64,000 bases of DNA from a virus. The notes below the pieces were generated by a model. That model had not been told where the DNA came from. It saw only the letters and a list, made by a program, of their open reading frames with translations, and searched no databases. Numbering within the stretch: position 1 is the first letter of the stretch; each line of letters starts with the position of its first letter. A program made the position numbers and the translations under genes. Shown here piece by piece: positions 2,917 to 42,238 of the stretch. The stretch covers positions 1 through 64,000 of the IMG/VR virus record IMGVR_UViG_3300003702_000965, one strand, 5' to 3'.

Positions 2917-3360
2917 ATGCCGAGTCTGATTTCATCAACTGAAAAAACTAATCTTACAACTATATTTACGGATATATTTGACACCTTCAAGAGAGTCATC
3001 ACTATACATAAAGAGCCTAAAAAAATAATAACATCAATAAACGAAAGCGCGCTTTTCGGCTACAAAGATTCCTCTAATATAGTAAACTATGCTTACGAGC
3101 CTGTTTCCTCATCCTTCTACGCTACGGTGAGATACATTGAGGCGGCTAGGGATGACGTGTTCGCGCAAAATTTTAATTCTTACGTGGAAGGAACAGTCGT
3201 AAGGATAAAGGTCCAACAAGCAACAAAAGAATATATAGAAGACGGCCCGAACGAAAAAGTAACTTTCGACGATAGATGTTTCGAGATAATTGGAAATGAT
3301 ACGGTGAAAAAGTTTTTAGATTCGACTTTTTATGTTTATTATTTAAAGGAGACGGGATAA
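2917..3360 (+). CDS. Putative head-closure protein
   Basis: 147 aa, beta-rich C-terminus (EKVTFDDRCFEIIG...YVYYLKE); position in neck module. Confidence 0.5.
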   Translation: MPSLISSTEKTNLTTIFTDIFDTFKRVITIHKEPKKIITSINESALFGYKDSSNIVNYAYEPVSSSFYATVRYIEAARDDVFAQNFNSYVEGTVVRIKVQQATKEYIEDGPNEKVTFDDRCFEIIGNDTVKKFLDSTFYVYYLKETG

Positions 3361-20546: not shown

Positions 20547-20551
20547 ATTTT

Positions 20552-22792: not shown

Positions 22793-22795
22793 AAT

Positions 22796-25468
22796 ATGCC
22801 ATCCCATTATCACACAATAGAGCAAATACAAATAGGAAACCAGAAGCCCGGTTTATTAGAAAGCGACGGAGTCATATACGCCATTATATCCTCGAGCTAT
22901 ACTCAGGGATATACAGATGGCCCCTCTAAGTTTTCCATTAGCATCGTTTCCACGGATTCTTCTGTAGAGTTGGAAAGCCCTAGTGGATATATAGGAACTA
23001 AATTCGAGAATACATTTGCCGAAAGCAATTTGGAAACAATAACCATTCTAGATAATGACGGTGAAGGAGTTTTTTCTTTTACGGGCTTCTTAATTTCCTA
23101 TTCGGAGAATCTTTCCGCAGGAAACAGGTCTTACACCTTGGAATACGTTGACACCTCAGTAATATTAGATAAAATTTTTGTAGGACTGCCAAATAGACAT
23201 AAGAGCAGTGACCACTACAACATGGCAGAAGTGGATGTAAAAGCTTTGTGTACGGATGCCGAAGGGATATCTACGGTTGCTTCTCGTAAATTTCGCCTTG
23301 ATGGAACGCGACTAGTAGACGGAGTAACTGGCATGCCGCTGGGAGATGGAATAAAATTAGCTTCTGAAAGAAGTTATAAGGCATTTTTGAACCGTGAAAA
23401 ATTTGCTGGTGGAATGATGATAGTTGGAGATGAGCAATGGTCTGAGAATTCATGTTCTATTCCTAAGGTTGATTATGAGCTTGGTGATTTACTTTATACC
23501 ATGAGCATCGGAGCAAATATCCTTTCCGAAGGAGCTCCGGTGAAGGGAATAAGACGGGAGCATTCTGGAACTCTGAGGGCAGTTTTAAGTAATTGGTGTG
23601 CTGAGTTTGGTTATACTTTTATTTGGGGTGCCGACAAAGATTACGACAGAGTTTCTTTTATAAATATGGGTATAGGTATTAATCCTAACTTTAGGGGCAT
23701 CAAAAGTGCGCTAAAAACGGCTGGGATTGAGTCCATGACTTATTCCAAAACAAATGATTCAATGTCCGTGGGTTTAACTACTCGTTTTATGAAGCCTCAT
23801 AATATAGAAGACAAGTCGGTAAGCATTTCAGCGCCTGTCCCATGTTCTCCGTTGAGGATCCAAGATGTTTTTAATTTTCAGACTTATGCTGTCCAAATGC
23901 CGGGGCAAGGAGTCAGGGGGGATGCATTTTCCATAAGCTGTGCTTTGTCCAAATACAACACCGACATAAGGACTTTATGGTATTTGGGTGGCTGCCGGCA
24001 AGGCAATTTTAGGTGGGAGGCGTTAGGGATATATTTAGCAGCCGGATCGTGGGGCTCTGGAGACAATGATTTTTACGCATTGGGCAAAGATGCTGAAAAA
24101 AATAATTTATTAAGATCTTATTTTTTATCTGATTATGATCAGATATTAGAGGAATGGGGCGGTGCGGCTAACGTTAAGTGCGCTATAGTCTATAGAAGCG
24201 AGGATATGGAAAATAGATTTATAGAATGGGAAAGAAGTATAGCTGATAATTTTATAGGGCAATATTTTAAAGCTAATTATTACAGTACTATTCCAGACTC
24301 GGAAGAATGCGGCCCGTTTGGTAGAAGAATGAAAGTTGCGGACAGCGATCCTCCATTCGAAGATTTGATAGGAGGATTTGTGGAGGCAAACTCAATGGAT
24401 CCATACGGCAAAGGACTTGGCATTGCGCCCTTCGCAAAATTTGGCCATGTAATAAAGAGATCTTCTGCGCCTTGGGTTGGTGGCATTGAGGCTGATAATG
24501 AATTAGATGTAAAAACATTTTTGCCTAGGTTTTTCCCAATAGATAACGACGTCATTGAATTGTTAATCGAAAACGGAACGATGACTGATGCCGTAATAAG
24601 TAGTTTCGCTATGGGAGGTGCTAGATTTGAGCTGGGGATTATGGTGTTTCACACAAAATCAATCAATACAAGCTCACTTGTGAGCATCGAGAACGGTAGA
24701 GGTGAGAACAATAGCGAAGTTACATTTAACGAAATCAATAAAGGAGCTATGGGGGTGAGCTCTGATTGCAAGCGTACCTGCTCCATCGATATCGAACAAT
24801 TAATTTGTAGAAAACCCATCTTTCCGAACAATTTAAGACCCGGCCCTAATAGTAATAGGTGCATGACGGTTGATGTGACGTATGACGGAGAATCTTTGGG
24901 GAAAATATTTATGCCAGCAGGGACGCTTGAAAACAGTGGTTTCACTAGGATAGAAAAGATAGATTTTTCCAACACTTTTTTCAAAAAAGCGATCAAACAT
25001 TTCGAGTTTTCCCCGCCAAGTAATGTCCTTAACGCGGCTTCTATAAATATAGTGACTCAAGACATGACTAATCAGGTTTTGTATCTTCCCAGCGAGACTG
25101 GAGACAGAGTATTAACCGCTGATACTATTGTAATCGGTAGAGGAAGCGCGAAAAGCTACGGTTATATAGACGTGGGATTTGGCGGTGCAGTAAGAAAATA
25201 TCATAACGATACGTTGGGAAGCTCTGTTGTTGGGGGGGAAAGCTCGCCTAAGGAAACTTTAAGCGCGGTTGTTCCGTCTTACGCTTTGTCAAAAATAACA
25301 GAGCTATTGAATGTGAAAAAAGGAATCTCTTCCTTTACTTTTTCTATCGGAGCTAATGGTTCAGACGTGAATGTTTCATTTGCTAATTTACCACCCACAC
25401 CCCCATCAATGGATATTTTAATGATTGATCAAGCGGTGAAAACAAGCACAATCCACTTTAGAAATTAA
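22796..25468 (+). CDS. Putative baseplate hub/central tail-tip protein
   Basis: 890 aa; GTLRAVLSNWCAEFGYTFIW resembles hub-protein segments; position in tail module. Confidence 0.45.
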   Translation: MPSHYHTIEQIQIGNQKPGLLESDGVIYAIISSSYTQGYTDGPSKFSISIVSTDSSVELESPSGYIGTKFENTFAESNLETITILDNDGEGVFSFTGFLISYSENLSAGNRSYTLEYVDTSVILDKIFVGLPNRHKSSDHYNMAEVDVKALCTDAEGISTVASRKFRLDGTRLVDGVTGMPLGDGIKLASERSYKAFLNREKFAGGMMIVGDEQWSENSCSIPKVDYELGDLLYTMSIGANILSEGAPVKGIRREHSGTLRAVLSNWCAEFGYTFIWGADKDYDRVSFINMGIGINPNFRGIKSALKTAGIESMTYSKTNDSMSVGLTTRFMKPHNIEDKSVSISAPVPCSPLRIQDVFNFQTYAVQMPGQGVRGDAFSISCALSKYNTDIRTLWYLGGCRQGNFRWEALGIYLAAGSWGSGDNDFYALGKDAEKNNLLRSYFLSDYDQILEEWGGAANVKCAIVYRSEDMENRFIEWERSIADNFIGQYFKANYYSTIPDSEECGPFGRRMKVADSDPPFEDLIGGFVEANSMDPYGKGLGIAPFAKFGHVIKRSSAPWVGGIEADNELDVKTFLPRFFPIDNDVIELLIENGTMTDAVISSFAMGGARFELGIMVFHTKSINTSSLVSIENGRGENNSEVTFNEINKGAMGVSSDCKRTCSIDIEQLICRKPIFPNNLRPGPNSNRCMTVDVTYDGESLGKIFMPAGTLENSGFTRIEKIDFSNTFFKKAIKHFEFSPPSNVLNAASINIVTQDMTNQVLYLPSETGDRVLTADTIVIGRGSAKSYGYIDVGFGGAVRKYHNDTLGSSVVGGESSPKETLSAVVPSYALSKITELLNVKKGISSFTFSIGANGSDVNVSFANLPPTPPSMDILMIDQAVKTSTIHFRN

Positions 25469-25469
25469 A

Positions 25470-26855
25470 ATGATTGTATTTAGCGGAAAAGATTTCAGGA
25501 ATATAAAAAATGAAAAGTCCATCACTTTTTCCATGGAAAACTTGGGTTTCAGCAACACAATTGGGAGTGGCTGTTTTGGTTTCTCTGGAGCGCTAAACAA
25601 AAGCTTTAATTTTAAATTCATAAAAGGCAATCTCGAGGACTCGAATGGGAGGGTTTTTTATAATTATGATGAAAATGGTGCTTTCGATTTTTCCGGAAAC
25701 GTCAATGAATCTAGTTATGATTATTATATAGATAGTATAGCTTATAGCAGAAATTCAAATAGATCCAACTACACAATTCAAAATTTCTTTGTTGAGTGTA
25801 GCGGCACCAACATGTCCGGAGATATAAACATTTATACCAAGGAGTCCAGAAAACTTAGTTTCACGCTACCTCCAAGATTCAGCGTTAGCGGAACTGTTAC
25901 AGGAACAATAACAAATTCCAGCTTGGATTACTCGTTGGATATATTTAGCAGCTATACTCAGCTGGATGAACAAAGCTTTACTTTAGAATCAATCACAAAC
26001 GCCGGTCATCTACGGCCCAATTCGACAATTAAATACGTTCTAAAAAACAACACAGGAGAAGCGGGAATTGTTTATCCAATTGATTTGATTTTCCCAACTT
26101 CAGCTGGAGATATTAGGGTTTTCAAAACTTCCATAGGAAGAGCTGATAAACCTTTTGAAAACAGCTCTCTCCAGACGTTGTCTCCCCTGTTTTCATCAGG
26201 GGAAAGCTCGGAGACGTACGACTCTGGAAGTTTTTATTTTAATAACGAAAAAAGAACCGCGACTGGATCAGGAGTAGTTGGGGATTACTATAGGCTGTTT
26301 TTGAAGTATGATCGGGGCTATACAGGGTTAACTTCAGGTTGGACAGGAGCTTTCACAATGTCAAATGCTGGGGCAGGATATGGCGATCAAAGTTTTAATG
26401 TCACTGGAGGATATGGAGTTGGGGGGCATGGTTTTGTTCTTTCTGATAGAAATGGAGTTCCCTCAGGCAGGTTGACTGGTATTTCTATAGATTCTTTAGG
26501 TAAGAATTATTCTGGTCAGCCGATTATGAAGATCAATCCCACGCTTGGAGTTACTGGAGAGACTCTTGCCGCCGGTGTTGGAGCCTCCATAACTGTGGAC
26601 AGACATGGGTACTATAAAAAGTTTTGGAATGTTTGGGACCTTTATTCGGGATCCTCTCCAACTGAATTACTTCCCGTTACTGGGGAAGACAGGCTGAATG
26701 AAGCTTACACAGGAAAGTTCCAAAGCAATCAAAACTTTTACATAGGTGTAAGGTCAAGAAACTATTATGACGACTTGGTGCAGGTTGCTGATTTGATAGT
26801 AAGTGGAGTGTCTAACGGGAAAGTGTTTACAGAGAAAATAACAGGAGTTTTATAA
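25470..26855 (+). CDS. Hypothetical virion protein
   Basis: 461 aa, Gly/Ser/Thr-rich; SNAGAGY and DSLGKNYSGQP motifs. Confidence 0.6.
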   Translation: MIVFSGKDFRNIKNEKSITFSMENLGFSNTIGSGCFGFSGALNKSFNFKFIKGNLEDSNGRVFYNYDENGAFDFSGNVNESSYDYYIDSIAYSRNSNRSNYTIQNFFVECSGTNMSGDINIYTKESRKLSFTLPPRFSVSGTVTGTITNSSLDYSLDIFSSYTQLDEQSFTLESITNAGHLRPNSTIKYVLKNNTGEAGIVYPIDLIFPTSAGDIRVFKTSIGRADKPFENSSLQTLSPLFSSGESSETYDSGSFYFNNEKRTATGSGVVGDYYRLFLKYDRGYTGLTSGWTGAFTMSNAGAGYGDQSFNVTGGYGVGGHGFVLSDRNGVPSGRLTGISIDSLGKNYSGQPIMKINPTLGVTGETLAAGVGASITVDRHGYYKKFWNVWDLYSGSSPTELLPVTGEDRLNEAYTGKFQSNQNFYIGVRSRNYYDDLVQVADLIVSGVSNGKVFTEKITGVL

Positions 26856-28666
26856 TGCCAGTAATAAAATCAGAAGCATCTCCAAATATATACAAAATAA
26901 ATAAGTTTGTTATAGTTGGCTATGTGCCCGGGGCAGGATCCGAAAACTCTGACCCCAAGGAGGCAGGCGCTAATCAAAAAAGACCGATCATTTTACAGGG
27001 GCGTAGAATATTCAGGAATTCCAACAAAGTAGAGATGGTTGATACGGAAGCGCCAATTGTTAACATTGCTGTGCCCGAGAATTTGCGATTTAGTGGCGCT
27101 GGATCTGGCGAAATTCAATTTAATACTGAGGTAGCGCCACCAAATAGCGCAGCCATTGGCACGTCGACCAAAAACGCATTAATTTGCCCCCCTTACCGAG
27201 TTGCAAATCCCGATCATCAAAAATCTTTCCTCGCCCAGCTAGCGGATGGAACCATTCCACCTCAAGCTGTTATTTACGCAATGAGGCTTGAGGCTGATGT
27301 GCGAACGGGAATTTCGCAGCCAAACTCCGAAACAAAATTAACTTGCATATATGTAGACACTAACGTTGACGGAAGAATGTTGAAAATTTCCAGCCAAAGC
27401 AAGTCTAATAAAATTGATCTTTCTGTAAAATACGGTCTAGCCGATCAAATAAAAGCTTGCCAAATAAACGAAGATGCGGCTATTGAATATTTATCTGATA
27501 TAGATGAGATATCTGGCTTCCCCACGGTGCTAACGTCTGCTCCGGATGATGTCACAACTGAACAAAAATATGCTATCGCTTTTAATGGGACGGATTCGTC
27601 GATTAACACTAAAGTTGCGTTAGTTCCTTTCTCTCCCGGTAGTGGCAGCGGGGTTAATCATTTTAGAGCTTTATCTGACGTTAATTCAGCTGCAGCAGAC
27701 TTGATAAGTGATCAAACTCCGGATGACGGCGATGCAGCAGTCACTGTGGCTTTTCAAAGTGGTCTGACTAATAGTCATGGGGGTTTAATTTTTTCAGCTC
27801 CAAATTTTACCGGAGGTGGATCTGCAAAAATAAGAGCAAATTATATAATAAACAAAAACTTCCAAGGAGGCGAGGGAGCTAATAATAATTTTTCCTATTT
27901 TGCGGTTTGCCCGCAGCCTCCTTTGGGGGACAGGGAAGATAATGAAAGCGCGACCGCTTCCGTTGGTTTACACACTTTTTCCGAGCTGATTGATAATGGC
28001 ATTTTCAAAGTCTTAGCGGGGGATACTAACGGTGAAGATAGCTTTAGTGCTCTCGATCATGTCGGTGCAGACAATCCAAATTCAGTTTATGTGCTGACTG
28101 CTTCTCCCGGTGAGATAACTCCAGCCGATGACGAAAATCCTATACTTGGTGAGGTGAGGTTCAGACAATTAGGATATTTGGAGCAGCTGGGAGGAGTTAC
28201 TGTTGCTGACGCCGTGAAATCCCATACGGACATTGAATCCGACGATGGGGTGTTATGCTTGGCTAAGTTAAAGCAAAGAACAACTGACGCAGCATCAAAC
28301 GCTCGGCATACAGTAACATTCGATACGTTAGGTTCTATATTAAGCGATCCTGATCCAGCTGCCCTAAAAACAGGGACCGATGTTCAGGCCGGAAGTTGGT
28401 TAGTGGTTAAAAAGGGGGGTACTGGAGGAACGTTGCAGACTGCCCTGTTGCATGCTGATCTTTTTGGTGGTGGCGGCGGCGGGAACGTAAGTTATGAATC
28501 TCCAAGCGAAGGCCTTACGACGGGGAGGCTTAAATTAGGGACACAAGATCTTGCCGATTCACAAAAATACCAAGTTTATACGCCGACTCTTTTTGGTATC
28601 TGCAAGGAGAATGGAAGCTATGAATATAGGTATTTTTTAACCTCTCTCCCTGTCACCAGCACATAA
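26855..28666 (+). CDS. Hypothetical virion/tail protein
   Basis: 603 aa, TAATG-coupled, acidic. Confidence 0.6.
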   Translation: MPVIKSEASPNIYKINKFVIVGYVPGAGSENSDPKEAGANQKRPIILQGRRIFRNSNKVEMVDTEAPIVNIAVPENLRFSGAGSGEIQFNTEVAPPNSAAIGTSTKNALICPPYRVANPDHQKSFLAQLADGTIPPQAVIYAMRLEADVRTGISQPNSETKLTCIYVDTNVDGRMLKISSQSKSNKIDLSVKYGLADQIKACQINEDAAIEYLSDIDEISGFPTVLTSAPDDVTTEQKYAIAFNGTDSSINTKVALVPFSPGSGSGVNHFRALSDVNSAAADLISDQTPDDGDAAVTVAFQSGLTNSHGGLIFSAPNFTGGGSAKIRANYIINKNFQGGEGANNNFSYFAVCPQPPLGDREDNESATASVGLHTFSELIDNGIFKVLAGDTNGEDSFSALDHVGADNPNSVYVLTASPGEITPADDENPILGEVRFRQLGYLEQLGGVTVADAVKSHTDIESDDGVLCLAKLKQRTTDAASNARHTVTFDTLGSILSDPDPAALKTGTDVQAGSWLVVKKGGTGGTLQTALLHADLFGGGGGGNVSYESPSEGLTTGRLKLGTQDLADSQKYQVYTPTLFGICKENGSYEYRYFLTSLPVTST

Positions 28667-28690
28667 TAATCAGTGTAATATATTTCGAGT

Positions 28691-29458
28691 ATGTCAAGAT
28701 TAAATTCTTCCAAATACGATTCGGTACTCATTGAAGATCTAGACTTTGATTCATCAACAAGAGTAGTAACCAAGAGAAAAACCAGAAAAAGAATCAAGAC
28801 TTTTGATATAAAAGACTTGGACTGGACAGATAAACAAAGAAATTTAATAGATTTATCTACAGAAAAAAGCTCAAAAATACTTTTTATTAAAGGTCCGGCT
28901 GGTACTTCTAAGACTATTATTTCGGTGTATTCAGCTCTAAAAATGGTAAATGAACTCTACGTTAACGATATAGTTTACGTCAGATCGGCTGTTGAGAGCT
29001 CAGACGCCAAGATAGGACACCTTCCGGGGGATGCTGAGCAGAAACTTCATTTCTATAATCTACCCTTTCACGACAAGCTTTCCGAGCTTTTAGACTCAAC
29101 AAACATGCAAACCTTGCAGAAAAATGACATAATTAGCGCGTACCCTATAAACTTTTGTAGGGGTATGAGCTGGAAGAACAAGTGTATAATTATGGATGAA
29201 GCTCAAAATAGCACGTTCAGGGAAATAGTTACGCTTATTACAAGGTTAGGATGTGGGTGTAAATGTTTTATATTGGCTGATCCAGAGCAAACAGATTTAA
29301 CCAATGGGAGAACTGGCGGCTTTGAGAAGATATACAAAGTCTTCGACAATAAAGAAAGCAGAGAGCATGGAATTCATACTTTTGAATTCCTAGAAGATGA
29401 CATCAAGAGATCAGAACTAGTAAAATTTGTAGTGAAAAGATTAAAAACAATTAAGTAA
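28691..29458 (+). CDS. phoH: PhoH-family ATPase
   Basis: GPAGTSKT (Walker A), IGHLPGD, RGMSW, IIMDEAQN, TRLG, DIKRSELVK. Confidence 0.92.
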   Translation: MSRLNSSKYDSVLIEDLDFDSSTRVVTKRKTRKRIKTFDIKDLDWTDKQRNLIDLSTEKSSKILFIKGPAGTSKTIISVYSALKMVNELYVNDIVYVRSAVESSDAKIGHLPGDAEQKLHFYNLPFHDKLSELLDSTNMQTLQKNDIISAYPINFCRGMSWKNKCIIMDEAQNSTFREIVTLITRLGCGCKCFILADPEQTDLTNGRTGGFEKIYKVFDNKESREHGIHTFEFLEDDIKRSELVKFVVKRLKTIK

Positions 29459-32400
29459 TGCCAACACCATTAGCAGAATTAGTAGCGCCCATTAAGAAGG
29501 GTTCATTAGGAGGTGCTCAGGTAGCAGACGTAGGAAAGATTTGCGATAGTGAACTCAAGGCCTCCGATGACGATCCTAGCGAGGGGGATAATAATGGGAC
29601 CGAAACAGACCATAGTAAATTCGTATATCACAGAGATAGAGTCGTAGACAAATATTCCGTTACAAGAGACACTATAAATGAGGGGACCGCTGCTACATTA
29701 AGTTACAATAATTCAGACCAAAAGTCGACTTCTCCTAATTTATACGTAGAAACTAATGCGAAAGCAGAGGCAGACGTAGTTTTACTTCCAACCCAAGCAG
29801 TTTCGAATTCTAACGAAGATGAAGGTGATTACGCCTATCTTGAGCCTTCTGTAAATTATGATTCTGACGGTAAGGAAAAGTGTTCCAGAACAACTAATAA
29901 TTTATTCAAGCCATCTGAATTGGTGGAACTTCACTCAAAAGAAAGCACTACATTAGATTCTCCTTTTAAGGCCACCAGAGCAAAAGGGGAGTACCAGTCG
30001 GAAACAATCCTAAACGCAAACAATTATAAAACTGGTCCCTCACCAAACGGAATGACCGTAGAATTGAATGACGGATTTTGTTTTATAGCTTCAATAGACA
30101 ATGCTGCCGAGTACGGAACTTTACTGTTGAATTTCAAACAGTCTCACCCCGCAAAAAGAGCGATAACCTCTTATATGATAAACAACCATATACAAGATCC
30201 GGATAAGTTATTAACTAATCCAAGAACTTTCAAGGGGGTGAACGACGCGGGGACCACGGAAGGTGGGTATTTTAGTGAGCACTCCATCGACTTTCGGTCA
30301 ATGCTTACCTCCCAATTATCGCCAGTCTCTCTTTATTCTGCTCCCATGTGGGTTTATAATAAATCAATAGAAAGTAGAGTTGTTTCTTATCCTCATGGTC
30401 ACGCTAGCCTGCAAGGTAATGATGATCTTCAAGCTTATATTGGGTATATACAAAGCTACAGCAAGAACAATGGGGACAAAAGCGCTGATTTAAATGTATT
30501 TTACAGCAGCTCATTTATATCAGAAGATTTCGGCAACTTATCGGTAGCTGCCCCTTTTACAGATGGAAAAGCTATTCGTACTGTAGTCCCCTATGGGACA
30601 AACGTAGCGAGTGCATGCGCCCTCGGAATGGGAAATTTATGTACTAATGCTAATGCTAGAAGCGATAGGACTAACGAACATCGAACAACTGCATATGGTT
30701 CTATAGATTACACTTTGACCCTTCCGCCAAACTACATAGAAGAAGAAGTAACTATTGAGCTCAATGAATCAGGTTTGCATGCTGGGTTCCCTAATTCCGC
30801 GGGTTCAACTACTGGCGATCCCGATCAGGTTTTATGGAACGCTAATAGTAATAATGGAGTTACTAGTCAATTCAAGGGCAACAGGAAGGATCCGGTTAAT
30901 GGTCGACCTACGGTTTCAAATGTTATAAGAGCTGACTTGGGTTGGAGACCGTATGAGATAATAGTCTTTAGGGGGACATTAACATATAACAAAAATACCG
31001 GTGTGGAATCTCATTCTGAAGATTATGTTGAGTATTTTAGATTTAGAACATTTGACACAGTTTTCAAAAAAGAAACTTACAATAGACAAATCGGTTCAGC
31101 TAGCGAAAGTGCAGAATCCACAGCGACATCTGCGGAAGGTGGAGATGTCCATGAGTATAGCTTCCCAGTAACAGGTTATCACAGGGAGAGTGATGGAGGT
31201 TTCGTAATTAATTTTTCTGAAAACTTCAAGACCTCTGATTTTTCACCGCAAAATAAACTCAAGGTCGCTGTAATACAGGACATAGTTGTAGATCCTGACG
31301 CGGTAAAAGCCACGTTCAGCAGTGCCGTTATAAATGCTATTCTTCCGGATGAAGGCAGGGTATTTTCTCCGATATTCGAAGACACCCTGCAAGTTTTAAA
31401 CAAAGATGAGGGCCTGTTTTTCGACACTAGCAGAGATTCCGCTAAATATAGTCGACCTTTCGGATATGGAAACTCTTATTCAACAGTAGAAGATCCAAAT
31501 TCGCCTACTGGACTCACATATTTAACCCATTTCTTTTGTCTTTCTTATGAAGTAGATTTGGAAGATGCGTATTATGGAAATAATGCTTGTTTCAATTCTA
31601 ACAGCTTTATAAGAGCTGGTACTGGCGGGCCAAGTGCCTTTGAGGGTACGGTTGCAACAGAATGGGAGCATCCAAATTATGATTGCACAAATTTTGGTGA
31701 TCTTGCTATTGATTTTCCCGGATTACCTTGGGTAATCAATAGTTATGAAAATCCTGTTCAAATACAAGATCCAATAACCTCGGTGAAATATCCCACTGAT
31801 CCGACTCAAAGAAGTTGCTCAATCCCCATTTTCCCGGGGCAAGACATAACTCAAATGGACCCAGATGGTAACAATGTAACACAGACCGCTGCAGAATGGG
31901 GATATGCTTTTTCGGGCGGTCTTGCCGTAAGAAGAGACACTTCGCCTGATGTTCCATTCGAATATATAAATGATACAGTTTTTAGTGACCCGGTTTGTGT
32001 AGCTGGATACGTAAATGGTTATAGGGAAACTTCTTGGTTCGCGAGAGATTTAGTTGCGGCTTATAGTGAAACTAGGTTCAATCAAATTAAAGACGCAGAT
32101 TACGGAATTTTTTCTGAAGAGCATAATGGCGTAAATTTTATTATGCCGGTACCTTGGACGTTGGGAATACAACTCATAAAACCTGAAAATATAAACGGAA
32201 TAGACTTGGATTCTGTAAGATGCTCTCTGGACAGAGACTCTTTCCACTCAAAAGCATTAGGCCCGGAAGAAGGAGAAAGTGACACGTTGAATGGTGTTGG
32301 TTATCATTGTGGAGAATGCGAGGATCTTGCCGAACCGCCTTCTGCAGAATTTGACGATGACCCGCCAACAAAACATGGTAAAGTGAAGAAGGGCTTTCCC

Positions 32401-32469
32401 CTGACGGATACATTAAATGATCACAGGTCATATGTCAGAATTCATGACGGAGCTAATTTAAATCCATAA
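29458..32469 (+). CDS. Large acidic hypothetical protein, probably virion-associated
   Basis: 1003-aa ORF, TAATG-coupled; no family recognised. Confidence 0.65.
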   Translation: MPTPLAELVAPIKKGSLGGAQVADVGKICDSELKASDDDPSEGDNNGTETDHSKFVYHRDRVVDKYSVTRDTINEGTAATLSYNNSDQKSTSPNLYVETNAKAEADVVLLPTQAVSNSNEDEGDYAYLEPSVNYDSDGKEKCSRTTNNLFKPSELVELHSKESTTLDSPFKATRAKGEYQSETILNANNYKTGPSPNGMTVELNDGFCFIASIDNAAEYGTLLLNFKQSHPAKRAITSYMINNHIQDPDKLLTNPRTFKGVNDAGTTEGGYFSEHSIDFRSMLTSQLSPVSLYSAPMWVYNKSIESRVVSYPHGHASLQGNDDLQAYIGYIQSYSKNNGDKSADLNVFYSSSFISEDFGNLSVAAPFTDGKAIRTVVPYGTNVASACALGMGNLCTNANARSDRTNEHRTTAYGSIDYTLTLPPNYIEEEVTIELNESGLHAGFPNSAGSTTGDPDQVLWNANSNNGVTSQFKGNRKDPVNGRPTVSNVIRADLGWRPYEIIVFRGTLTYNKNTGVESHSEDYVEYFRFRTFDTVFKKETYNRQIGSASESAESTATSAEGGDVHEYSFPVTGYHRESDGGFVINFSENFKTSDFSPQNKLKVAVIQDIVVDPDAVKATFSSAVINAILPDEGRVFSPIFEDTLQVLNKDEGLFFDTSRDSAKYSRPFGYGNSYSTVEDPNSPTGLTYLTHFFCLSYEVDLEDAYYGNNACFNSNSFIRAGTGGPSAFEGTVATEWEHPNYDCTNFGDLAIDFPGLPWVINSYENPVQIQDPITSVKYPTDPTQRSCSIPIFPGQDITQMDPDGNNVTQTAAEWGYAFSGGLAVRRDTSPDVPFEYINDTVFSDPVCVAGYVNGYRETSWFARDLVAAYSETRFNQIKDADYGIFSEEHNGVNFIMPVPWTLGIQLIKPENINGIDLDSVRCSLDRDSFHSKALGPEEGESDTLNGVGYHCGECEDLAEPPSAEFDDDPPTKHGKVKKGFPLTDTLNDHRSYVRIHDGANLNP

Positions 32470-32470
32470 A

Positions 32471-34300
32471 ATGCCAGACACATATAAAACTACATATAGG
32501 GTCGAAAAAGAGAAACAATTTACGCTAGAAGGGAAACAGGTGAATGTAGCTGGTTTTGTTTCTAGTTGCGATTATTGTGAACCGTGTCATGACGAGGCGG
32601 AGGGCATAGACAGCTTATCCGTATGGGAAAATGGAGAAACTACAATAAGATTTTTCCCACACGTAACCGATCAAAATGGTCCCGACTATACAGCCAGATC
32701 AACTGAACTTATTAATTCGGTAGGCACAATCCCACGGACTTCGTTTGCCTACGGAATTGGTGTAGATGGACTGGCCGATCCCTCAATAGCTAATCCTGAC
32801 TGGGTAGATGGCGGGGGTTTCTATTTCAAAAAAAGAACTCCTGCGTTTCTAGTCTCATCCGATCCTCCCACGAACGATCCAAACATTGATGAAGATGGAA
32901 ACCATCTAAGAGATGTGCATGGTGATCTAGTGGAACCTAGGAAACCTATTTGCGAGTATTTAATCGAAGTGAACTGGAGCGCGGTTATGGATAACCAAAT
33001 ATTAAATTGGTTCAGGGGTGGGCCAGATAGGATGGCTTTTTTGGTGGTGAACAGACACACAGATCGCATGGCTGAAAACAATGTTTTTCCGTCCCAACCT
33101 TTCGTATATAGCGAAGGTATCCATGCGAATCCAGACCTCAAAGGGGGTATTATACAGCAATATTTTCATTTCTTGAATCATACCGGAAGTGTCGGCGCAT
33201 CGGGAATAACTGGAGATGGAATAGAGCGGGCATATCCTTCTGGAAAATTCTTTTTTAAGGCAAAGTCTTATGATTCTTTTTGGATTGAATTTTATGAGTA
33301 CGGCAGGAGGGGATTCAGCAATGAAGAGCTAATGGCAAGAGAAAGCAATGAAAATGACGAAAACATGTTTAGAGTCGAGTATGCCGAAATGAACGACGCT
33401 ACTTCATGGGGCTTAGAGGCTCCCGAAACGTATGGCCCCGGACTAGCTACGGCAGTTGTTAATTGGTCGAAGAGCCTTAATGATTATGATTCGTTTTATG
33501 ACTTTTCACTTGGGTATACAACCTCGCAAAGAATAGATCTAGGGGTAATTCATAAAATGAAAGATGATGTTAAAAACTATAATGACACTTTACCGGAGCT
33601 AAGAAGAATGGGAGCTTTTGCGAGGTACAACAGAGGGGTATTTGAGGGTGGAAATGTTTTTTATGATGTTATAGATCCGGAAACAGGAGAGATTGTAGTT
33701 GATGAAGAAACAGGAGAAAATGTAGTTAATGAAATTTCCGACTCTGAACTGAAATATAATAGGTTAGGCGCTGATGGAACAGACAACCCTCTTTCCGGCG
33801 GAACGTACAATATGAAATACGAATTACCAGCGACGTTAGGTAGTCACTCCGCTTACGATTTAAATTTAGGACTTGCAGATCCTATTAATTACGACTGGAG
33901 GAGGGGCGACCCTGAAACCTTAAATACAAACGAATCGACCAATATTGACCACAACAACATCAAAATGACATTTAAAAAACATTTGATCGTCAGCCCTTCT
34001 TTTGCATATGTACCGTCTGAAGATGCGAGCAAAAGCTTAACAAACAAAACAGTAGCCTTCGCTCCTTATATGGAAATTAAATCCTTTGGTTTTTTGGGTC
34101 ATGGTCGAGCAGGACTTAATCATCCTCTCGGCGACATCGACTCGGACCATGATGTTAAAGTAGGAGGCGCAGCGTATCCGCATGGATCAACCGAAGGTAA
34201 TAGATTTACTAAAAATATGGGAGACGGAAAACAGGCTCCCACAAATAAAGTGGCCAGACCGGGGCAATTATTGCATCACACTTTAGCAGTAGAGAAATAA
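32471..34300 (+). CDS. Acidic hypothetical protein
   Basis: 609-aa ORF with N-terminal CDYCEPC; last gene of the + strand block. Confidence 0.65.
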   Translation: MPDTYKTTYRVEKEKQFTLEGKQVNVAGFVSSCDYCEPCHDEAEGIDSLSVWENGETTIRFFPHVTDQNGPDYTARSTELINSVGTIPRTSFAYGIGVDGLADPSIANPDWVDGGGFYFKKRTPAFLVSSDPPTNDPNIDEDGNHLRDVHGDLVEPRKPICEYLIEVNWSAVMDNQILNWFRGGPDRMAFLVVNRHTDRMAENNVFPSQPFVYSEGIHANPDLKGGIIQQYFHFLNHTGSVGASGITGDGIERAYPSGKFFFKAKSYDSFWIEFYEYGRRGFSNEELMARESNENDENMFRVEYAEMNDATSWGLEAPETYGPGLATAVVNWSKSLNDYDSFYDFSLGYTTSQRIDLGVIHKMKDDVKNYNDTLPELRRMGAFARYNRGVFEGGNVFYDVIDPETGEIVVDEETGENVVNEISDSELKYNRLGADGTDNPLSGGTYNMKYELPATLGSHSAYDLNLGLADPINYDWRRGDPETLNTNESTNIDHNNIKMTFKKHLIVSPSFAYVPSEDASKSLTNKTVAFAPYMEIKSFGFLGHGRAGLNHPLGDIDSDHDVKVGGAAYPHGSTEGNRFTKNMGDGKQAPTNKVARPGQLLHHTLAVEK

Positions 34301-38869: not shown

Positions 38870-39230
38870 ATTTTTCTAAAATCAAATATATATTATAGAT
38901 AAACAGGGTCAAGATTACGACTAACGGGAAATATAGCGGCATAATGAATACGACAGCTACGCTCATCCAAAAGGTTAAGCAAATAGGGCATGATACTAAT
39001 TTTGAAAAAAAGTCATCGTTCGTAATTGACAGAAACTCAGAGTAATTTACACTAACTTTAGCTTGATTAACAAAATTTTCGTATTCTTCCAAGTTAAAAA
39101 GCTCTTTGATTATCCTTATTTTATCGAGCTTTAATACTTTTATATATTCATAAAAAACATTAGTTTTAAGCCAAATTATAAGGACTAGAGAATAAACAAA
39201 TGGAAGCAAGATTATAGCCCCGTTATCCAT
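38859..39230 (-). CDS. DUF1360-like membrane protein
   Basis: Hydrophobic ends and LVSCPICLTFW (CxxCxxxW); ATG 39230 preferred. Confidence 0.6.
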   Translation of the reverse strand: MDNGAIILLPFVYSLVLIIWLKTNVFYEYIKVLKLDKIRIIKELFNLEEYENFVNQAKVSVNYSEFLSITNDDFFSKLVSCPICLTFWMSVAVVFIMPLYFPLVVILTLFIYNIYLILEKYAR

Positions 39231-40632
39231 CTTTTGTATTGCAAAAAGACACAATCACATATCTTGTGCCGCTGGTGGTAGGTCTAGCTCCATGCTTATG
39301 AGTTATATTACCGGGATGCATAACCACTTCTCCAATGTCGTTTTGGACGAGTATTTTTTGCCTTCTAAAATATGTTCCGCTCCCTTCAAAATCCCTTCCA
39401 CGTTGATTTAGGTTAGCTAGAAAGGTCAGCTTCGAATAGTCGTGGTGAAGCGATAGGTGCGACTGCTTGGATGGTATATATTTTATAATGAAGTTTTCCC
39501 CCGTTAAGGATGCCCAGTTTGAGCCTTCCAGCGCGTATAGAAATTCAGCGGCAGGGTAGCAGTGCTTCTTCAAAACTTGTTCATATACATTATTGATTCC
39601 CACTGTATCTAATAACATGTCAGTTGTAGGATAAAATTCATGCCTTTTCTCTGTCCACTCCCCCTCGGTTTCGCATAAATCAATCATTTCTTTACAGAAA
39701 ATTTCATTGAAAAGGGGCCATTTGAAAATGTTTGAGTATCCGGGTTCTCCCAATTCATCTGCCATCAATTCCCATTCGTGGGAGCGAGCCTCTATTCTCA
39801 GGTATTTTTCTTCCCAAGCTTTTGGGTCTTTGTCGTAGTCTCTTATCGACAAGTCTCCTTCCGTTGGCTGACCTTGTGGGCTGTCGAATCTAGATGCTAT
39901 ATTTCCTTTTAAGGGTTCTATTTTTTTTGTCTTGATTGGCTTAAATTCTTCGTAGCCGAAGTCTTCTTTCCCTGACTCCCCCTTTTTGGTCACCTCCTTG
40001 CTTATGGTGACGCCGGGTACTGGGGAAATGAGAGGCTGTGAAAATTTAGACTTCTCTCCATCTGCTCTTATGAAAGCTACCAATGTTAGTCTTCCGTCAT
40101 ACAAATCATTACCAAAGTATTCGTCAGACTTGTGAAAGAAGAGAGGGTTGTAGATCATACATCTGTTATATACGTTTTCTACTGTTTCTCTTACGTCATA
40201 CCATTTTGGATCTCCATCTGATTCTTTATATTCTTTAGACTTTTTATTTGCGCTTTCTTTTAAGTCGTAAATTATAGTGCCTGAATTGGGCTTTGGGTCA
40301 GGAGTAAGGTAAATTAAAGCAACATGAGTGAAGTCTTGATCCATCTTGTCGTCATGAACCCAGCTATCCCCGTCTTTTGAAGTACACAATTGAAACATTA
40401 CCTCAAAATAAGACTCTTTACCTTGCGGCCAGCCCATAACTTCGTATATTCTCCCAGTAAACTCATAATAAAGTTTTTCGCTGAGAGTATGATAAAAAGG
40501 AGTTCTAGTTCCGGGCCAATTGCCCCCAGATGGATGAGTTTCTTTTGGAAAAAACTTCTGAGAAAGGGCGAACTTCCTTACTTTATCAGGATCTGGGAAA
40601 AAATTTTCGAATACAAGCTCTTTGTCACTCAT
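39223..40632 (-). CDS. Tandem 2OG-Fe(II) dioxygenase: N-terminal DUF6445-like domain plus C-terminal procollagen lysyl hydroxylase (PLOD)-like domain
   Basis: N-half: ENFFPDPDKVR, WPGTRT, HDD...FFH...GRLT. C-half: PLFNEIFC, YPTTDM, FIIKYIPSKQSHLSLHHDYS, FEGSGTYF, HPGNITHKHGARPTTSGTRYVIVSF. Confidence 0.85.
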   Translation of the reverse strand: MSDKELVFENFFPDPDKVRKFALSQKFFPKETHPSGGNWPGTRTPFYHTLSEKLYYEFTGRIYEVMGWPQGKESYFEVMFQLCTSKDGDSWVHDDKMDQDFTHVALIYLTPDPKPNSGTIIYDLKESANKKSKEYKESDGDPKWYDVRETVENVYNRCMIYNPLFFHKSDEYFGNDLYDGRLTLVAFIRADGEKSKFSQPLISPVPGVTISKEVTKKGESGKEDFGYEEFKPIKTKKIEPLKGNIASRFDSPQGQPTEGDLSIRDYDKDPKAWEEKYLRIEARSHEWELMADELGEPGYSNIFKWPLFNEIFCKEMIDLCETEGEWTEKRHEFYPTTDMLLDTVGINNVYEQVLKKHCYPAAEFLYALEGSNWASLTGENFIIKYIPSKQSHLSLHHDYSKLTFLANLNQRGRDFEGSGTYFRRQKILVQNDIGEVVMHPGNITHKHGARPTTSGTRYVIVSFCNTKDG

Positions 40633-40638
40633 GATCTG

Positions 40639-41073
40639 TTATATTTTTACTAATTCGACACCATAAAAATCTAATATTTCTTTAGCTTTCAGGTCTTGAT
40701 CATATTCTTCAGAGTATATTACTTGTGGTATTTTGTATGCAGCTATTAGCGTGGCACAGTGAGAACATGGTAATAGAGTCACGGCTAGTATACTAGCTTG
40801 ACCTTTATTGAATAGAGACATACAGTTGGCTTCTGCGTGTATCATATACTTCCTTCTTTCGTCTCTGTCGAGCCAGAATTCCGCGTCCACCTTTTTTTTA
40901 GGAGCTAACCCGTTGTAACCGACTCCTAGGATCATCCTGTCTCGGTCTAAGGCGCAAGCTCCCACTTTTCTATGAGGATCTTCGCTTCTTTTAGAAGCTG
41001 TTTTAGCTATTTCAAGGGCGTATTCTTGCCAGCTAAGCCTTTCTTTAATATCAGTTCCTAGAATATATTCCAC
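40639..41073 (-). CDS. dCMP deaminase
   Basis: RSEDP, GYNG, HAEAN, PCSHC. GTG 41073 preferred because the track's TTG at 41115 is a promoter -35 box. Confidence 0.9.
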   Translation of the reverse strand: MEYILGTDIKERLSWQEYALEIAKTASKRSEDPHRKVGACALDRDRMILGVGYNGLAPKKKVDAEFWLDRDERRKYMIHAEANCMSLFNKGQASILAVTLLPCSHCATLIAAYKIPQVIYSEEYDQDLKAKEILDFYGVELVKI

Positions 41074-41086
41074 AACAAAGGAGCTT

Positions 41087-41115
41087 ATTTTATGAATTAC
41101 TTTGGCAGTGGTCAA
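41087..41115 (-). promoter_or_regulatory. Leftward sigma70-type promoter
   Basis: TTGACC-actgccaaagtaattca(17)-TAAAAT. Confidence 0.75.
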
Positions 41116-41130
41116 GGAAAATAAAAAGAG

Positions 41131-41159
41131 TTGACAAACAAAAAGGTGTCGAATATTAT
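41131..41159 (+). promoter_or_regulatory. Rightward sigma70-type promoter
   Basis: TTGACA-aacaaaaaggtgtcgaa(17)-TATTAT. Confidence 0.85.
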
Positions 41160-41165
41160 TTGTTA

Positions 41166-41592
41166 ATTGCTTTTCGCGGCAAGTAGCCTAGCGAGGATAT
41201 CTCGCTTCAACACGTAAGAGACAACAGGCCCGTAAAAAGACGCCAATCAAGAAGGCTAATAACCTTCACGCTATTTCGGGAAAAGGCGGCGTTTGAGATT
41301 GGAAAAGCTGTTAACTTGGGCGACCCCTCTGGGGGAAGGAAGAAGTTAAAGTGTCAAAAAACAAGTCCTGCCGCTTAATGTTAAGCAATGTACATAGCTG
41401 AATTTGGTTGTGAGCTAGGCTGAAGCATGGCCGACGCGTAGGACTGAAACGGGTAAATTCAGACCATTTTTTAGGTAATGTCATGATTTTCACTTGACGG
41501 TTACCAAGTTGACTGCTATTCCTTAGGCTCCTCCTCGGAGGAAGGAAGAAGTTAAAACTTCTTCTTATGCGTTCTGCGAACGCTAATTTTTT
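41166..41592 (+). ncRNA. Candidate ~430-nt structured RNA or leader, family unrecognised
   Basis: Largest non-coding gap in the window, directly after a near-consensus promoter. Contains many helices, a duplicated 17-nt motif and a 3' hairpin plus U-tract. Confidence 0.55.
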
Positions 41593-41598
41593 AAACAT

Positions 41599-42207
41599 AT
41601 GGATAGCCAAGTAACCGTTTCTGATTTAGAGTTAGTCGATGAAATAAGAGAGTTTAAGTGCTCCGACAGTCTTGTAGCGTTGACTGGTAGGCATGTCGGG
41701 ATCCTAAATAAAGTCTTCAAAAGATATTCGGGGGCCTTAGTTTCTATTGGGTATTCCTATGATTCCTTTAAAGGTGATTTTAATTTAGTTACTTTTAAAG
41801 CTTGCACATCATTTAGAATAGAAGGCGGGTCTAAGTTTTCGACTTGGCTATGTAATCACGCAAGATACCACTGTTTGAATCAAATAAATAAAAAAAATAA
41901 AATTAAAGATTTAAGTATCGAAGATGAGCAATATTTAGAATTCTTAGCGCAAAGCCAAAGCCTGCCCAACTCCTTCAAGCTCGAAATAGATTACGTCTTT
42001 AAAATCCTGTCAGACATGAAAGACAAAAGGATTTCCAAAGTTTTTAATATGAGATATTTCGGAGAAATTGGAAAAAATGGATGCCCTTGGTCTAAAATAG
42101 GTGAAGAACTTGGGATAAGCACCCAGACGGCGATAAATTTACATGAAAAAGGAGCTAAATTAATCAGAAACAAGCTTAAAAGCCCAAACCCGACTGACAA
42201 AATCTAG
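41599..42207 (+). CDS. Phage sigma70-family sigma factor (regions 2 and 4)
   Basis: FKACTSF...SKFSTWLCNHARY (region 2); MRYFG...WSKIGEELGISTQTAINLHEKG (region 4 HTH). Confidence 0.8.
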   Translation: MDSQVTVSDLELVDEIREFKCSDSLVALTGRHVGILNKVFKRYSGALVSIGYSYDSFKGDFNLVTFKACTSFRIEGGSKFSTWLCNHARYHCLNQINKKNKIKDLSIEDEQYLEFLAQSQSLPNSFKLEIDYVFKILSDMKDKRISKVFNMRYFGEIGKNGCPWSKIGEELGISTQTAINLHEKGAKLIRNKLKSPNPTDKI

Positions 42208-42209
42208 AC

Positions 42210-42238
42210 TTGACAAAGGGGAAAGGGTAACTTAATAT
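42210..42238 (+). promoter_or_regulatory. Sigma70-type promoter
   Basis: TTGACA-aaggggaaagggtaact(17)-TAATAT, 10 nt before ATG 42249. Confidence 0.75.

Follow-up and report, generated by a model that had tools for sequence, protein, structure and literature searches.

The stretch of 64,000 nucleotides analysed here (the window; positions 1 to 64,000 of the 84-kb IMG/VR virus record IMGVR_UViG_3300003702_000965) contains a gene-free gap at positions 41116-41598, which is bordered by a dCMP deaminase gene on the minus strand (40639-41115; Pfam PF00383) and by a gene for a phage sigma-70-family factor on the plus strand (41599-42207; phrog_1740, with homologues named sigma-70 family). The gap is a point of divergent transcription and forms the head of a plus-strand gene block that reaches the end of the window. 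A consensus promoter upstream of the gap's central part, reported in an earlier note on this DNA, was verified as a sigma-70-like, host-type TTGACA-17-TATTAT on the plus strand (41131-41159) that matches 11 of 12 consensus positions, with the -35 box at 41131-41136, the -10 box at 41154-41159 and a predicted transcription start at about 41166. The promoter scan revealed a second promoter, TTGACA-17-TAATAT, 3' of the sigma gene (42210-42238, plus strand). Other conserved gaps, unrelated to the one described here, occupy this position in related phages.

Downstream of the first promoter lies a non-coding RNA gene of about 425 nt (41166-41592, plus strand), which is supported by its conservation, the score of its 5' domain against the covariance model described below and the lack of a coding signal. 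Sequence conservation starts immediately 3' of the -10 box, and the RNA ends in a weak hairpin with a U-tract, 6 nt upstream of the sigma ATG; no promoter-like site was found by the scan between the RNA and this ATG in the window. A TTGACA-17-TAGGAT promoter was detected by the same scan in lineage L106 at the same distance upstream of the conserved RNA, and promoter-like sites at this distance could be read by eye in the aligned upstream sequences of other lineages, whereas a strict scan of lineage L074 yielded no site upstream of the RNA. Over the family, most lineages have such a site immediately in front of the conserved start. Compared with its closest relative (L002), the RNA gene is 83% identical over 426 nt, as against 67-68% nucleotide identity for the flanking genes and 52% identity for the sigma factor at the protein level. 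The mismatches to this relative are spread evenly over the three phases (26/25/22) and thus show no codon periodicity, and a conserved reading frame is absent from 41166-41592. Two candidate open reading frames were discarded: one of 99 amino acids on the minus strand (41311-41610), where L002 has no ORF of at least 50 amino acids, and one of 15 codons on the plus strand starting at 41567, whose ATG reads ATA in L002.

A covariance model (R1) of the 135-position 5' domain was used to identify homologues, and the 5' domain in the window scored 124.8 bits against it (E 2e-33). The family comprises 59 IMG/VR phage contigs, recognized by a two-part motif and model R1, and three metagenome contigs; the latter, the only yield of the metagenome scan, are all L002-like copies, and that scan added no further variants to the sub-lineage to which the window itself belongs. 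A homologue was found neither in 185,579 prokaryote species genomes nor among GenBank phages (blastn and tblastn), and scanning viral contigs with a single protein gave nothing. A first scan of prokaryote genome contigs gave 0 matches, and the 16 prokaryote-genome matches of a second scan all failed model R1 and are therefore regarded as chance matches. Across dozens of phages that carry the RNA, the proteins have diverged to about 40% identity while the RNA is nearly unchanged. A literature search found no description of such an RNA either. The family, absent from the catalogues searched, is carried by a lineage of about 60 uncultured phages.

The comparison with Rfam and the earlier note's failure to recognise tRNA, tmRNA, RNase P or group I hallmarks led to the same result. 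Rfam 15 gave no match at gathering score in the window and nothing meaningful at E<=10, and no match at E<=1 was obtained within the RNA of four other lineages. ARAGORN detected no tRNA or tmRNA in the window, and with the group I intron model (Intron_gpI, RF00028) neither this region nor the 84-kb record as a whole produced a match at E<=10. The covariance models of RNase P RNA, SRP RNA and 6S RNA did not match even at E<=10, nor did those of GOLLD, ROOL, OLE and raiA. A tRNA-like end is absent from the RNA. The word GUAAAAAG and a UAAUAA hairpin loop presumably recall tmRNA, and a tmRNA-like tag was considered; it was dropped because the reading frame that leads up to UAAUAA lacks conservation and is interrupted by a stop codon in L074. 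A splicing context is absent as well, as the promoter lies directly upstream, the first bases of the RNA are paired and the sigma gene is complete.

The folding-energy z-score of the region is -2.5 for the plus strand and -2.1 for the minus strand. Folding energy alone is weak evidence, and the case for a structured RNA thus rests on the homologues. The fold model derived from them consists of 64 pairs in 13 helices, with five crossing helix pairs. Over 28 sequences these pairs are 95.8% paired, compared with 33-46% when the partners are slid against each other, and 40 of the 64 pairs change on both sides, a number reached by 0 of 500 shuffles. Several pairs are G-U throughout or in the majority of the sequences; as the opposite strand would then have A-C mismatches, the structure fits the plus strand only. 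Conservation above that of the flanks, no conserved frame and abundant compensatory changes together support the view that the gap holds a multi-domain non-coding RNA, as the earlier note had proposed. Many A-rich joiners are unpaired and invariant among the sequences.

All helices lie on the plus strand. The 5' end is closed by P0 (AUUGCUU, 41166-41172 with 41383-41389), in which the leader of each lineage complements its own downstream tail, so that complementarity is retained although the leaders differ completely among lineages, and by P1 (GCGGC, 41176-41180 with 41370-41374), which is 99.3% paired and shows both-sided changes in three of its five pairs. The 5' domain proper (41186-41302) contains P2 (41186-89/41284-87), P3 (41190-95/41201-06), the invariant P4 (41229-32/41277-80), P5 (41251-55/41263-67) and two pseudoknots, PKa (41268-71/41289-92) and PKb (41243-48/41297-41302). 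Its 29 pairs are 94.3% paired versus 34-46% when slid, 20 of them change on both sides, and the invariant GGCCCGUAAAAAGAC with the later UUUCGGGRAA is found in the window. The 3' part is tied back to this domain by the long-range helix PKc (CAAC/GUUG, 41222-41225 with 41508-41511; 98.2% paired). A pattern search across lineages recovered PKc as CAAC/GUUG, CAUC/GAUG, CCUC/GAGG and CAGC/GUUG, and the alignments show CCAC/GUGG in the largest lineage and CAAC/GUUG in L080. PKc and the two modules described below were checked in each sequence and not from the alignment (A4) alone.

The central domain (41364-41461) is formed by P8 (41364-68/41441-45), which crosses both P1 and P9, is 100% paired and has three pairs that change on both sides, by the covarying P9 (41399-41406/41454-61, extended by 41408/52, 41410/50 and 41411/49), which together with its extension is 97.1% paired with both-sided changes in 9 of 11 pairs, and by the small helices P10 (41414-15/41436-37) and P11 (41418-21/41429-32). 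It is preceded by module M1 (41303-41356), a hairpin with a purine-rich internal loop recognized from a sequence repeat and its local fold, with the stems P6a (41307-09/41350-52), P6b (41311-17/41343-49) and P7 (41324-27/41331-34); P7 covaries, and every lineage has the outer stems, though in shifted registers. Module M2 (41513-41566) is a second, nearly identical copy of this type of hairpin, likewise with a purine-rich loop, identified on the same grounds, and contains a 43-nt stretch identical to L002. The modules share a 20-bp direct repeat, the only repeat in the gap, whose copies lie 206 bp apart (GGGGGAAGGAAGAAGTTAAA, 41331-41350, in M1; GGAGGAAGGAAGAAGTTAAA, 41537-41556, in M2). In M2 the repeat is followed by a stem of its own (41543-52/41557-66), with which a stem UUCCUU/AAGGAA competes for 41543-47. 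In every lineage M1 and M2 carry an identical, lineage-specific 3' word. Between the central domain and M2 stands a hairpin (GGUAA-GUCA/UGAC-UUACC, 41474-41505, -9.7 kcal/mol) whose length and sequence differ in all lineages. The RNA terminates in the hairpin GCGUUC-UGC-GAACGC with UAAUUUUUU (41569-41592, -7.1 kcal/mol), a weak intrinsic terminator in which the stem (41569-41583) is followed by TAATTTTTT and separated from the T-run by 3 nt. Two compensatory pairs distinguish this hairpin from that of L002 (ACGCUC/GAGCGU), and the T-run is absent in the L002-type relatives, the nearest ones, which have kept the hairpin.

The helices that the earlier note had read by eye were about half right, with five that hold, one that does so in this lineage only and four that fail. 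AGCGAG/CTCGCT and GAAGG/CCTTC correspond to P3 and P5, respectively, each supported by compensatory change, and the terminal GCGTTC/GAACGC hairpin before the sigma ATG likewise stands by the compensatory pairs mentioned above. From the longer pairing AGTCCTGC/GTAGGACT the core AGTCC/GGACT was retained as P8 on the basis of compensatory change. TTAACTT/AAGTTAA forms in the window and over 5 bp in L002, but in the other lineages the stem has a different register, and GGTAA-GTCA/TGAC-TTACC turned out to be the lineage-specific variable hairpin, L002 having a hairpin of different sequence there. The long-range GCCCGT/ACGGGT showed no both-sided change and its 3' arm covaries with 41408-41411 instead; ACGCC/GGCGT and TAGCT/AGCTA were paired in only 51% and 60% of cells, respectively; and GCTTAA/TTAAGC is displaced by the conserved P0/P1 pairing of the 5' end with 41370-41389. 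The pseudoknots, P0/P1, P9 and the duplicated hairpin module had not been part of that map. Among other pairings considered, the minimum-energy long-range helix 41301-19/41504-22 and the inverted-repeat pairing 41162-75/41302-15 are displaced by the conserved P0, PKc and module stems, and an alternative helix between 41449-54 and 41370-74 is not upheld by L002 and L044.

In every locus that extends far enough, a sigma gene is found 3' of the RNA in the same orientation. It lies about 375-390 nt from the core motif, the short spacing that applies to the window, L002, L103 and the L059 type, and about 1000 nt from it in loci with an inserted kinase-like gene. In the window and in the L002-type and L059-type loci, only 6-25 nt, with no promoter, separate the end of the 3' hairpin from the start codon, and in the L059 type the ribosome-binding site and the sigma ATG come directly after it. 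In three lineages with the same fold, including L103 and the L106 group as well as L080, promoter-like sites separate the RNA from the gene that comes after it; in L080 a tRNA-Gly gene abuts the last module and is followed by a new TTGACA promoter. In the window, where the sigma gene has no promoter of its own and begins 6 nt behind the hairpin and T-run, it would have to be reached by read-through. The position before the sigma gene could, however, also reflect an inherited gene order in related phages and not function. Two of three RNA libraries gave nothing; the third gave a single 151-nt contig of an L002-like relative, which stretches from the 3' module over the hairpin as far as the first part of the sigma gene and for which DNA carry-over is possible.

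The explanation favored here, for which the chances appear about even, is that the locus encodes a discrete, folded early RNA acting as a two-module scaffold or decoy, combined with a leaky terminator that meters the sigma factor. Transcription by host-type RNA polymerase would begin at the promoter TTGACA-17-TATTAT. The first transcribed bases form P0/P1 and thereby close the 5' domain of P2-P5 with its two internal pseudoknots, P8 and P9 form a second domain interleaved with P1, and the 4 bp of PKc anchor the 3' part to the 5' domain. The RNA would be made very early as a discrete and stable molecule, and M1 and M2 may represent two equivalent binding modules for one and the same partner, serving while transcription passes from the host to the phage. 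Only the concerted evolution of the modules suggests these two binding sites, and it could be accounted for just as well by strand exchange between M1 and M2 or by gene conversion. In this phage the weak terminator would pass only a fraction of the transcripts into the sigma gene, and since that gene is promoterless, the RNA gene may set both the amount and the earliness of sigma.

A tentative alternative, possible but on the unlikely side, is a cis-acting leader of the sigma gene, that is an attenuator, sensor or translation gate, perhaps responsive to a ligand or protein, in which the fold would control either the passage of polymerase through the 3' hairpin or the access of ribosomes to the sigma start. 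The order of promoter, structured RNA, hairpin with T-run and start codon of a promoterless regulator gene resembles terminator leaders, and this reading is favored by the same-strand sigma gene (or kinase-like gene and then sigma) that always follows, by the promoterless 6-25 nt in the window, L002-type and L059-type loci, by the hairpin adjoining the ribosome-binding site and ATG in the latter, and by the competing M2 stems that share 41543-47. Terminator leaders differ in having an antiterminator, whereas no sequence complementary to the terminator's 5' arm was found upstream of it; moreover, the T-run is not conserved in relatives, the fold is kept where promoter-like sites, and in L080 also a tRNA gene, separate it from the next gene, and its size and five crossing helices exceed those of any leader known to us. 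The interleaving of P1 and P8 also raises the possibility of a ribozyme that would cut or modify the transcript to which it belongs and might in this way set free or cap the mRNA downstream, as the lariat-capping ribozyme does. Its strand order (P1-5', P8-5', P1-3', inner hairpins, P8-3') is what we take to be that of P3/P7 in group I introns, and the P8 5' strand abutting the P1 3' strand behind an A-rich joiner, with small hairpins enclosed, presumably completes a group-I-like layout, to which the many invariant, unpaired A-rich joiners can be added. We know, however, of no group I intron with counterparts of PKa, PKb, PKc, P9 or the duplicated modules, and the negative Intron_gpI and Rfam searches of the window and the four other lineages, the lack of exons or an interrupted gene, a 5' end that starts at a promoter and is paired in P0, and the lack of an identified conserved candidate cleavage site make a ribozyme of this kind very unlikely.

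Slightly more doubtful still is a role like that of HK022 put, a phage RNA that renders the polymerase transcribing it resistant to terminators (PMC9378689). As with put, the RNA lies just 3' of an early promoter and could act on its own polymerase; it heads the plus-strand block that runs to the end of the window, and a terminator-like site must be passed for sigma to be expressed. Yet put is a pair of small stem-loops and not a multi-domain 425-nt fold (PMC9378689), terminator-like sites in the downstream block are no commoner than in shuffled sequence (18 found versus 16 expected), and the second consensus promoter at 42210-42238 makes the long gene block independent of the RNA transcript. 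The divergent transcription at the gap and the direct repeat could finally suggest a DNA-level element, such as the replication origin at the strand switch that the earlier note had offered as an alternative, and the 99-amino acid and 15-codon ORFs could suggest small protein-coding genes. Both are highly improbable, because selection has kept base pairs of one strand and not DNA words, with some pairs G-U in every sequence, and because both ORFs are missing in L002 and codon periodicity is lacking.

The RNA can be compared with known large RNAs. To our knowledge, few RNA classes of such size with so many pseudoknots exist, and those of known function are catalysts, sensors or scaffolds. tmRNA, RNase P RNA and 6S RNA, large housekeeping RNAs of bacteria that some phages also carry, fall into a similar size range, and tmRNA is also rich in pseudoknots. 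Like GOLLD, ROOL, OLE and raiA, the present RNA is large, pseudoknot-rich, strongly covarying and phage-carried, and its internal repeated modules could pair within or between molecules; it differs from them in its fixed place between an early promoter and a phage sigma gene, and the likeness is one of kind only. Characterized examples of large RNAs are scarce, and homo-oligomeric, RNA-only assembly is a feature of the ornate RNAs among them (PMC12286853). GOLLD and ROOL have no described function and are often located near tRNA genes (PMC12286853), a proximity shared by the RNA copy that abuts the tRNA-Gly gene in L080. With about 425 nt, the family is shorter than the studied ROOL of 659 nt and than many GOLLDs, which exceed 800 nt (PMC12286853).

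It is rather unlikely, though conceivable, that the family represents a new class of large functional RNA for host take-over. One possibility would be a catalyst in which the group-I-like layout serves a different job, such as processing or capping of the sigma transcript; another would be a self-assembling or two-site decoy that captures a host machine such as RNA polymerase, the ribosome or a defence nuclease within the first minutes after infection. If this were true, the folded RNAs without homology to it that related phages carry at this site would be different answers to one common problem. Its length of about 425 nt puts the RNA within reach of chemical probing and cryo-EM, and a covariation model is at hand. 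The early host-type promoter and the positional tie to the sigma gene point to the earliest steps of infection or to the hand-over of transcription, and the conserved but unrelated gaps that related phages have at this site suggest that there may be a general, so far unrecognized layer of RNA-based early regulation.

The window covers 64 kb of an 83,950-bp IMG/VR virus record (estimated completeness, 55%) in which the RNA is present as a single copy. The gap that contains it (41116-41598) separates the minus-strand dCMP deaminase gene (40639-41115; PF00383) from the plus-strand sigma gene (41599-42207), whose 202-aa product matches PHROG 1740, "RNA polymerase sigma factor"; PF04542 is present in some homologs of this protein, and the source names refer to the sigma-70 family. 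A promoter matching 11 of 12 consensus positions (TTGACA-17-TATTAT; 41131-41159, plus strand) precedes the RNA, and a second consensus promoter (TTGACA-17-TAATAT; 42210-42238, plus strand) is located in the 41 bp that separate the sigma gene from the gene after it; sigma is thus bracketed by two host-type promoters. The promoter scan found no promoter-like site between the RNA and the sigma gene in the window, which, together with the promoter 3' of sigma, indicates that both belong to one short early unit. Adjoining the dCMP deaminase gene, and near a ribonucleotide reductase gene, is a gene for a 469-aa protein with DUF6445 and a 2OG-Fe(II) oxygenase domain (39223-40632, minus strand), a candidate enzyme of nucleotide or DNA modification. 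A collagen-like tail-fibre gene lies at the 5' end of the window. A 2330-aa ORF (8893-15885) precedes eight ORFs of 255-1003 aa (15892-34300); the eight ORFs searched within 8893-34300 (461-1003 aa) had no PHROG family match, placing the structural module very distant from described phages.

For the whole window, searches of Rfam 15 returned no match at gathering scores; for the gap they returned noise alone at E ≤ 10, and for four other lineages no match inside the RNA. ARAGORN found neither tRNA nor tmRNA in the gap, and no family, model or paper covering the RNA was found in Rfam and the literature. The closest relative, L002, shares 83% identity with the window over the 426 nt of the RNA, compared with 67-68% nucleotide identity in the flanking genes and 52% protein identity in sigma; in the pairwise alignment, conservation starts just past the -10 box and stops at the terminal hairpin. 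Relatives of the sigma protein were aligned and 80 viral loci were fetched for gap comparison, of which just 11 contain the RNA; in the gap comparison, four loci besides L002 matched its 5' half. An exact scan with an invariant 17-mer recovered 41 loci, including three chance matches, and a two-part motif scan recovered 60 viral contigs, all homologous by alignment except L127; the newly found contigs were also supported by R1, the covariance model built with Infernal, which covers the 5' domain alone. Three metagenome contigs carry L002-like copies. The L002-like type is the one other type in the sub-lineage of the window, and the 3' modules and terminator were thus judged mostly from the wider family. 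Of two scans of prokaryotes (one genome per species, 185,579 species), the first gave no pattern match and the second gave 16, all of which failed R1; GenBank phages contained neither the DNA of the RNA nor the sigma protein. Metagenomes from 14 studies, of marine and hydrothermal-vent origin, make up the sequencing runs that contain the stretch.

By itself, the folding z-score (plus strand, -2.5; minus strand, -2.1) is a modest thermodynamic signal. RNAalifold predicted 49 pairs from 28 sequences, 31 of them with compensatory change. Manual extension brought the model to 13 helices with 64 pairs; on counting, 95.8% of cells were paired, compared with 33-46% when the 3' partners were slid by 1-3 columns, and both-side changes were seen at 40 pairs, a number reached by none of 500 shuffles. 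All helices are on the plus strand: P1 (41176-80/41370-74), P2 (41186-89/41284-87), P3 (41190-95/41201-06), P4 (41229-32/41277-80; invariant, hence uninformative), P5 (41251-55/41263-67), P7 (41324-27/41331-34), P8 (41364-68/41441-45), P9 (41399-41406/41454-61, with an extension at 41408-11/41449-52), P10 (41414-15/41436-37), P11 (41418-21/41429-32), and the pseudoknot helices PKa (41268-71/41289-92), PKb (41243-48/41297-41302) and PKc (41222-25/41508-11). Five crossing helix pairs were counted in the fold model; PKa forms crossings with P2 and P4, PKb with these two and with PKa, and P8 with both P1 and P9. PKc reaches across nearly the entire molecule and varies by lineage (CAAC/GUUG, CAUC/GAUG, CCUC/GAGG, CAGC/GUUG; read from alignments, the largest lineage has CCAC/GUGG and L080 has CAAC/GUUG), and it shows the 3' part and the 5' domain to belong to the same molecule. 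G-U occurs at several pairs in all or most sequences (e.g., in 28 of 28 at columns 275/286), and since these would be A-C mismatches on the other strand, the plus strand is the functional one. The promoter-to-hairpin unit encodes a compact, multiply knotted RNA, in which the base pairs and many unpaired A-rich joiners are under strong purifying selection.

Half of the ten helices read by eye in the earlier note were borne out, namely P3, P5, P8, a variable hairpin (41474-41505) and the terminal hairpin, and TTAACTT/AAGTTAA holds in this lineage only. The other four fail. The proposed long-range GCCCGT/ACGGGT is 90% paired with zero both-side changes, its 3' arm showing covariation with 41408-11 instead; ACGCC/GGCGT and TAGCT/AGCTA are paired in 51% and 60% of cells, respectively, and GCTTAA/TTAAGC overlaps P0/P1.

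The 5' end of the RNA is fixed by the promoter and P0 (41166-72/41383-89, plus strand), which pairs the first transcribed bases with a stretch 3' of P1. The P0 leaders are unrelated in sequence across lineages, each being complementary to its own tail: AUUGCUU/AAGCAAU in the window, and AGUUCUUUGU/ACAAAGAACU, CAGUCUGUUGU/ACAACAGACUG and UUAGUUUGAUC/GAUCAAGCUAA in a second, third and fourth lineage. A 20-nt repeat (41331 and 41537) forms the 3' strand in each of two like hairpin modules, M1 (41303-56) and M2 (41513-66) on the plus strand, both built of an outer stem, a purine-rich internal loop and a short inner hairpin. The outer stems are not alignable column by column across lineages; in every lineage both copies share one lineage-specific word (GAAGUUAAA in the window; elsewhere, e.g., GGAUAAGCAGUC, GCUGGCAGUU or GGCGAUGGUAG), and the 5' strands also change together (GCUAG with GCUAU to ACUAG with ACUAU in L132). 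Pairing may occur within each module, by a strand swap of the two or between molecules, arrangements that look alike to covariation. The concerted evolution of the two modules suggests either that the RNA offers one partner two equivalent sites or that it self-associates. Only 9 of 54 window genes have a GGAG, GAGG or AGGA word before the start codon, and their upstream regions are A/T-rich; the host thus probably uses few Shine-Dalgarno sites, and against this background the two GGAGGAAGGAAG-like loops in the RNA are conspicuous.

M2 is the last element kept in all lineages and is followed by a short hairpin with its own sequence in each. In the window, this hairpin (GCGTTC-TGC-GAACGC, 41569-41583, with TAATTTTTT; -7.1 kcal/mol, then UAA and six U) is the top terminator-like site of its strand in the region; compared with L002 it shows two compensatory pairs, and the T-run is missing in L002-type relatives. 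The sole match in RNA libraries, one contig of a relative, extends from M2 across the hairpin into sigma and, if real RNA, represents read-through and not a free 3' end. In L080, a tRNA-Gly (GCC) gene (2925-3000; anticodon read by eye from the alignment) begins a few bases after M2 and is followed by a TTGACA-17-TATTAT promoter, so that 5' processing of the tRNA would free the RNA.

Wherever a locus is long enough, the sigma gene follows downstream of the RNA on the same strand; the upstream neighbors vary. The sigma start is about 375-390 nt from the core motif in the window, L002, L103 and the L059 type, and about 1000 nt where a P-loop kinase-like gene of about 200 aa is inserted (L074:3375-4022, L039:2402-3031, L044:1894-2553, L080:3072-3683), the product of which matches the dNMP kinase and phosphomevalonate kinase families of Pfam only weakly and below threshold. 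In L103 and the L106 group, the RNA and the gene after it have promoter-like sites between them. Many of the remaining loci among the 80 have other conserved gene-free gaps of 390-490 nt in the same place, without detectable similarity to the RNA and absent from Rfam where searched. One such type in sister phages (L027:2507-2974, L064:2488-2974, L075:2506-2977, L077:2483-2971, L053:1201-1640, L079:2587-2974) occupies the slot of the RNA about 1 kb upstream of the same sigma gene, is about 390-490 nt long and 73-93% identical among copies, and had no Rfam match in L027, the one of the six searched; it looks like another uncatalogued RNA. In this neighborhood, related phages carry two more sets of gaps, about 400-490 nt long and alike within each set (L027:458-892, L064:923-1356, L075:931-1365, L079:522-958; and L028:1820-2215, L035:1063-1522, L031:1519-1973, L030:2895-3382, L038:2441-2910).

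The RNAs most alike in kind are GOLLD and ROOL, large phage- or prophage-encoded RNAs of unknown function often found beside tRNA genes; ROOL has multiple pseudoknots, and both were shown to form RNA-only assemblies (PMC12286853). Neither model matches the RNA. In layout, the interleaved P1 and P8 are reminiscent of the group I intron core (P3/P7); the defining features of these introns that could be tested are absent, and their model had no match in the entire record at E ≤ 10.

A purely cis-acting leader, close to the attenuator proposed in the earlier note, would fit the order of promoter, fold, terminator and gene, but the search for an antiterminator gave none and relatives do not all keep the T-run; we regard this explanation as possible but doubtful. 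Catalysis by the knotted fold, i.e., a ribozyme, appears improbable, and marginally more so a polymerase modifier like the HK022 put RNA (PMC9378689), with which the position behind an early promoter is the only common feature. The gap contains a single ORF of notable size, 99 aa long, on the minus strand and starting with TTG, which has neither a family match nor a counterpart in L002, and the 73 mismatches between window and L002 are distributed 26/25/22 across the three phases; small ORFs, or a DNA element, are the least credible explanation.

For an early, discrete molecule that would act through its fold, the chief argument is constancy of structure: lineages retain this fold regardless of whether the following gene is joined to it, carries a promoter of its own or lies beyond a tRNA gene. 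In the phage of the window, a weak terminator before the promoter-less sigma gene would let through only some transcripts, by which the RNA gene would also set sigma dose and timing. We hold this combined reading, of an early discrete RNA working as a folded molecule and also setting the dose and timing of sigma, with evenly balanced confidence.
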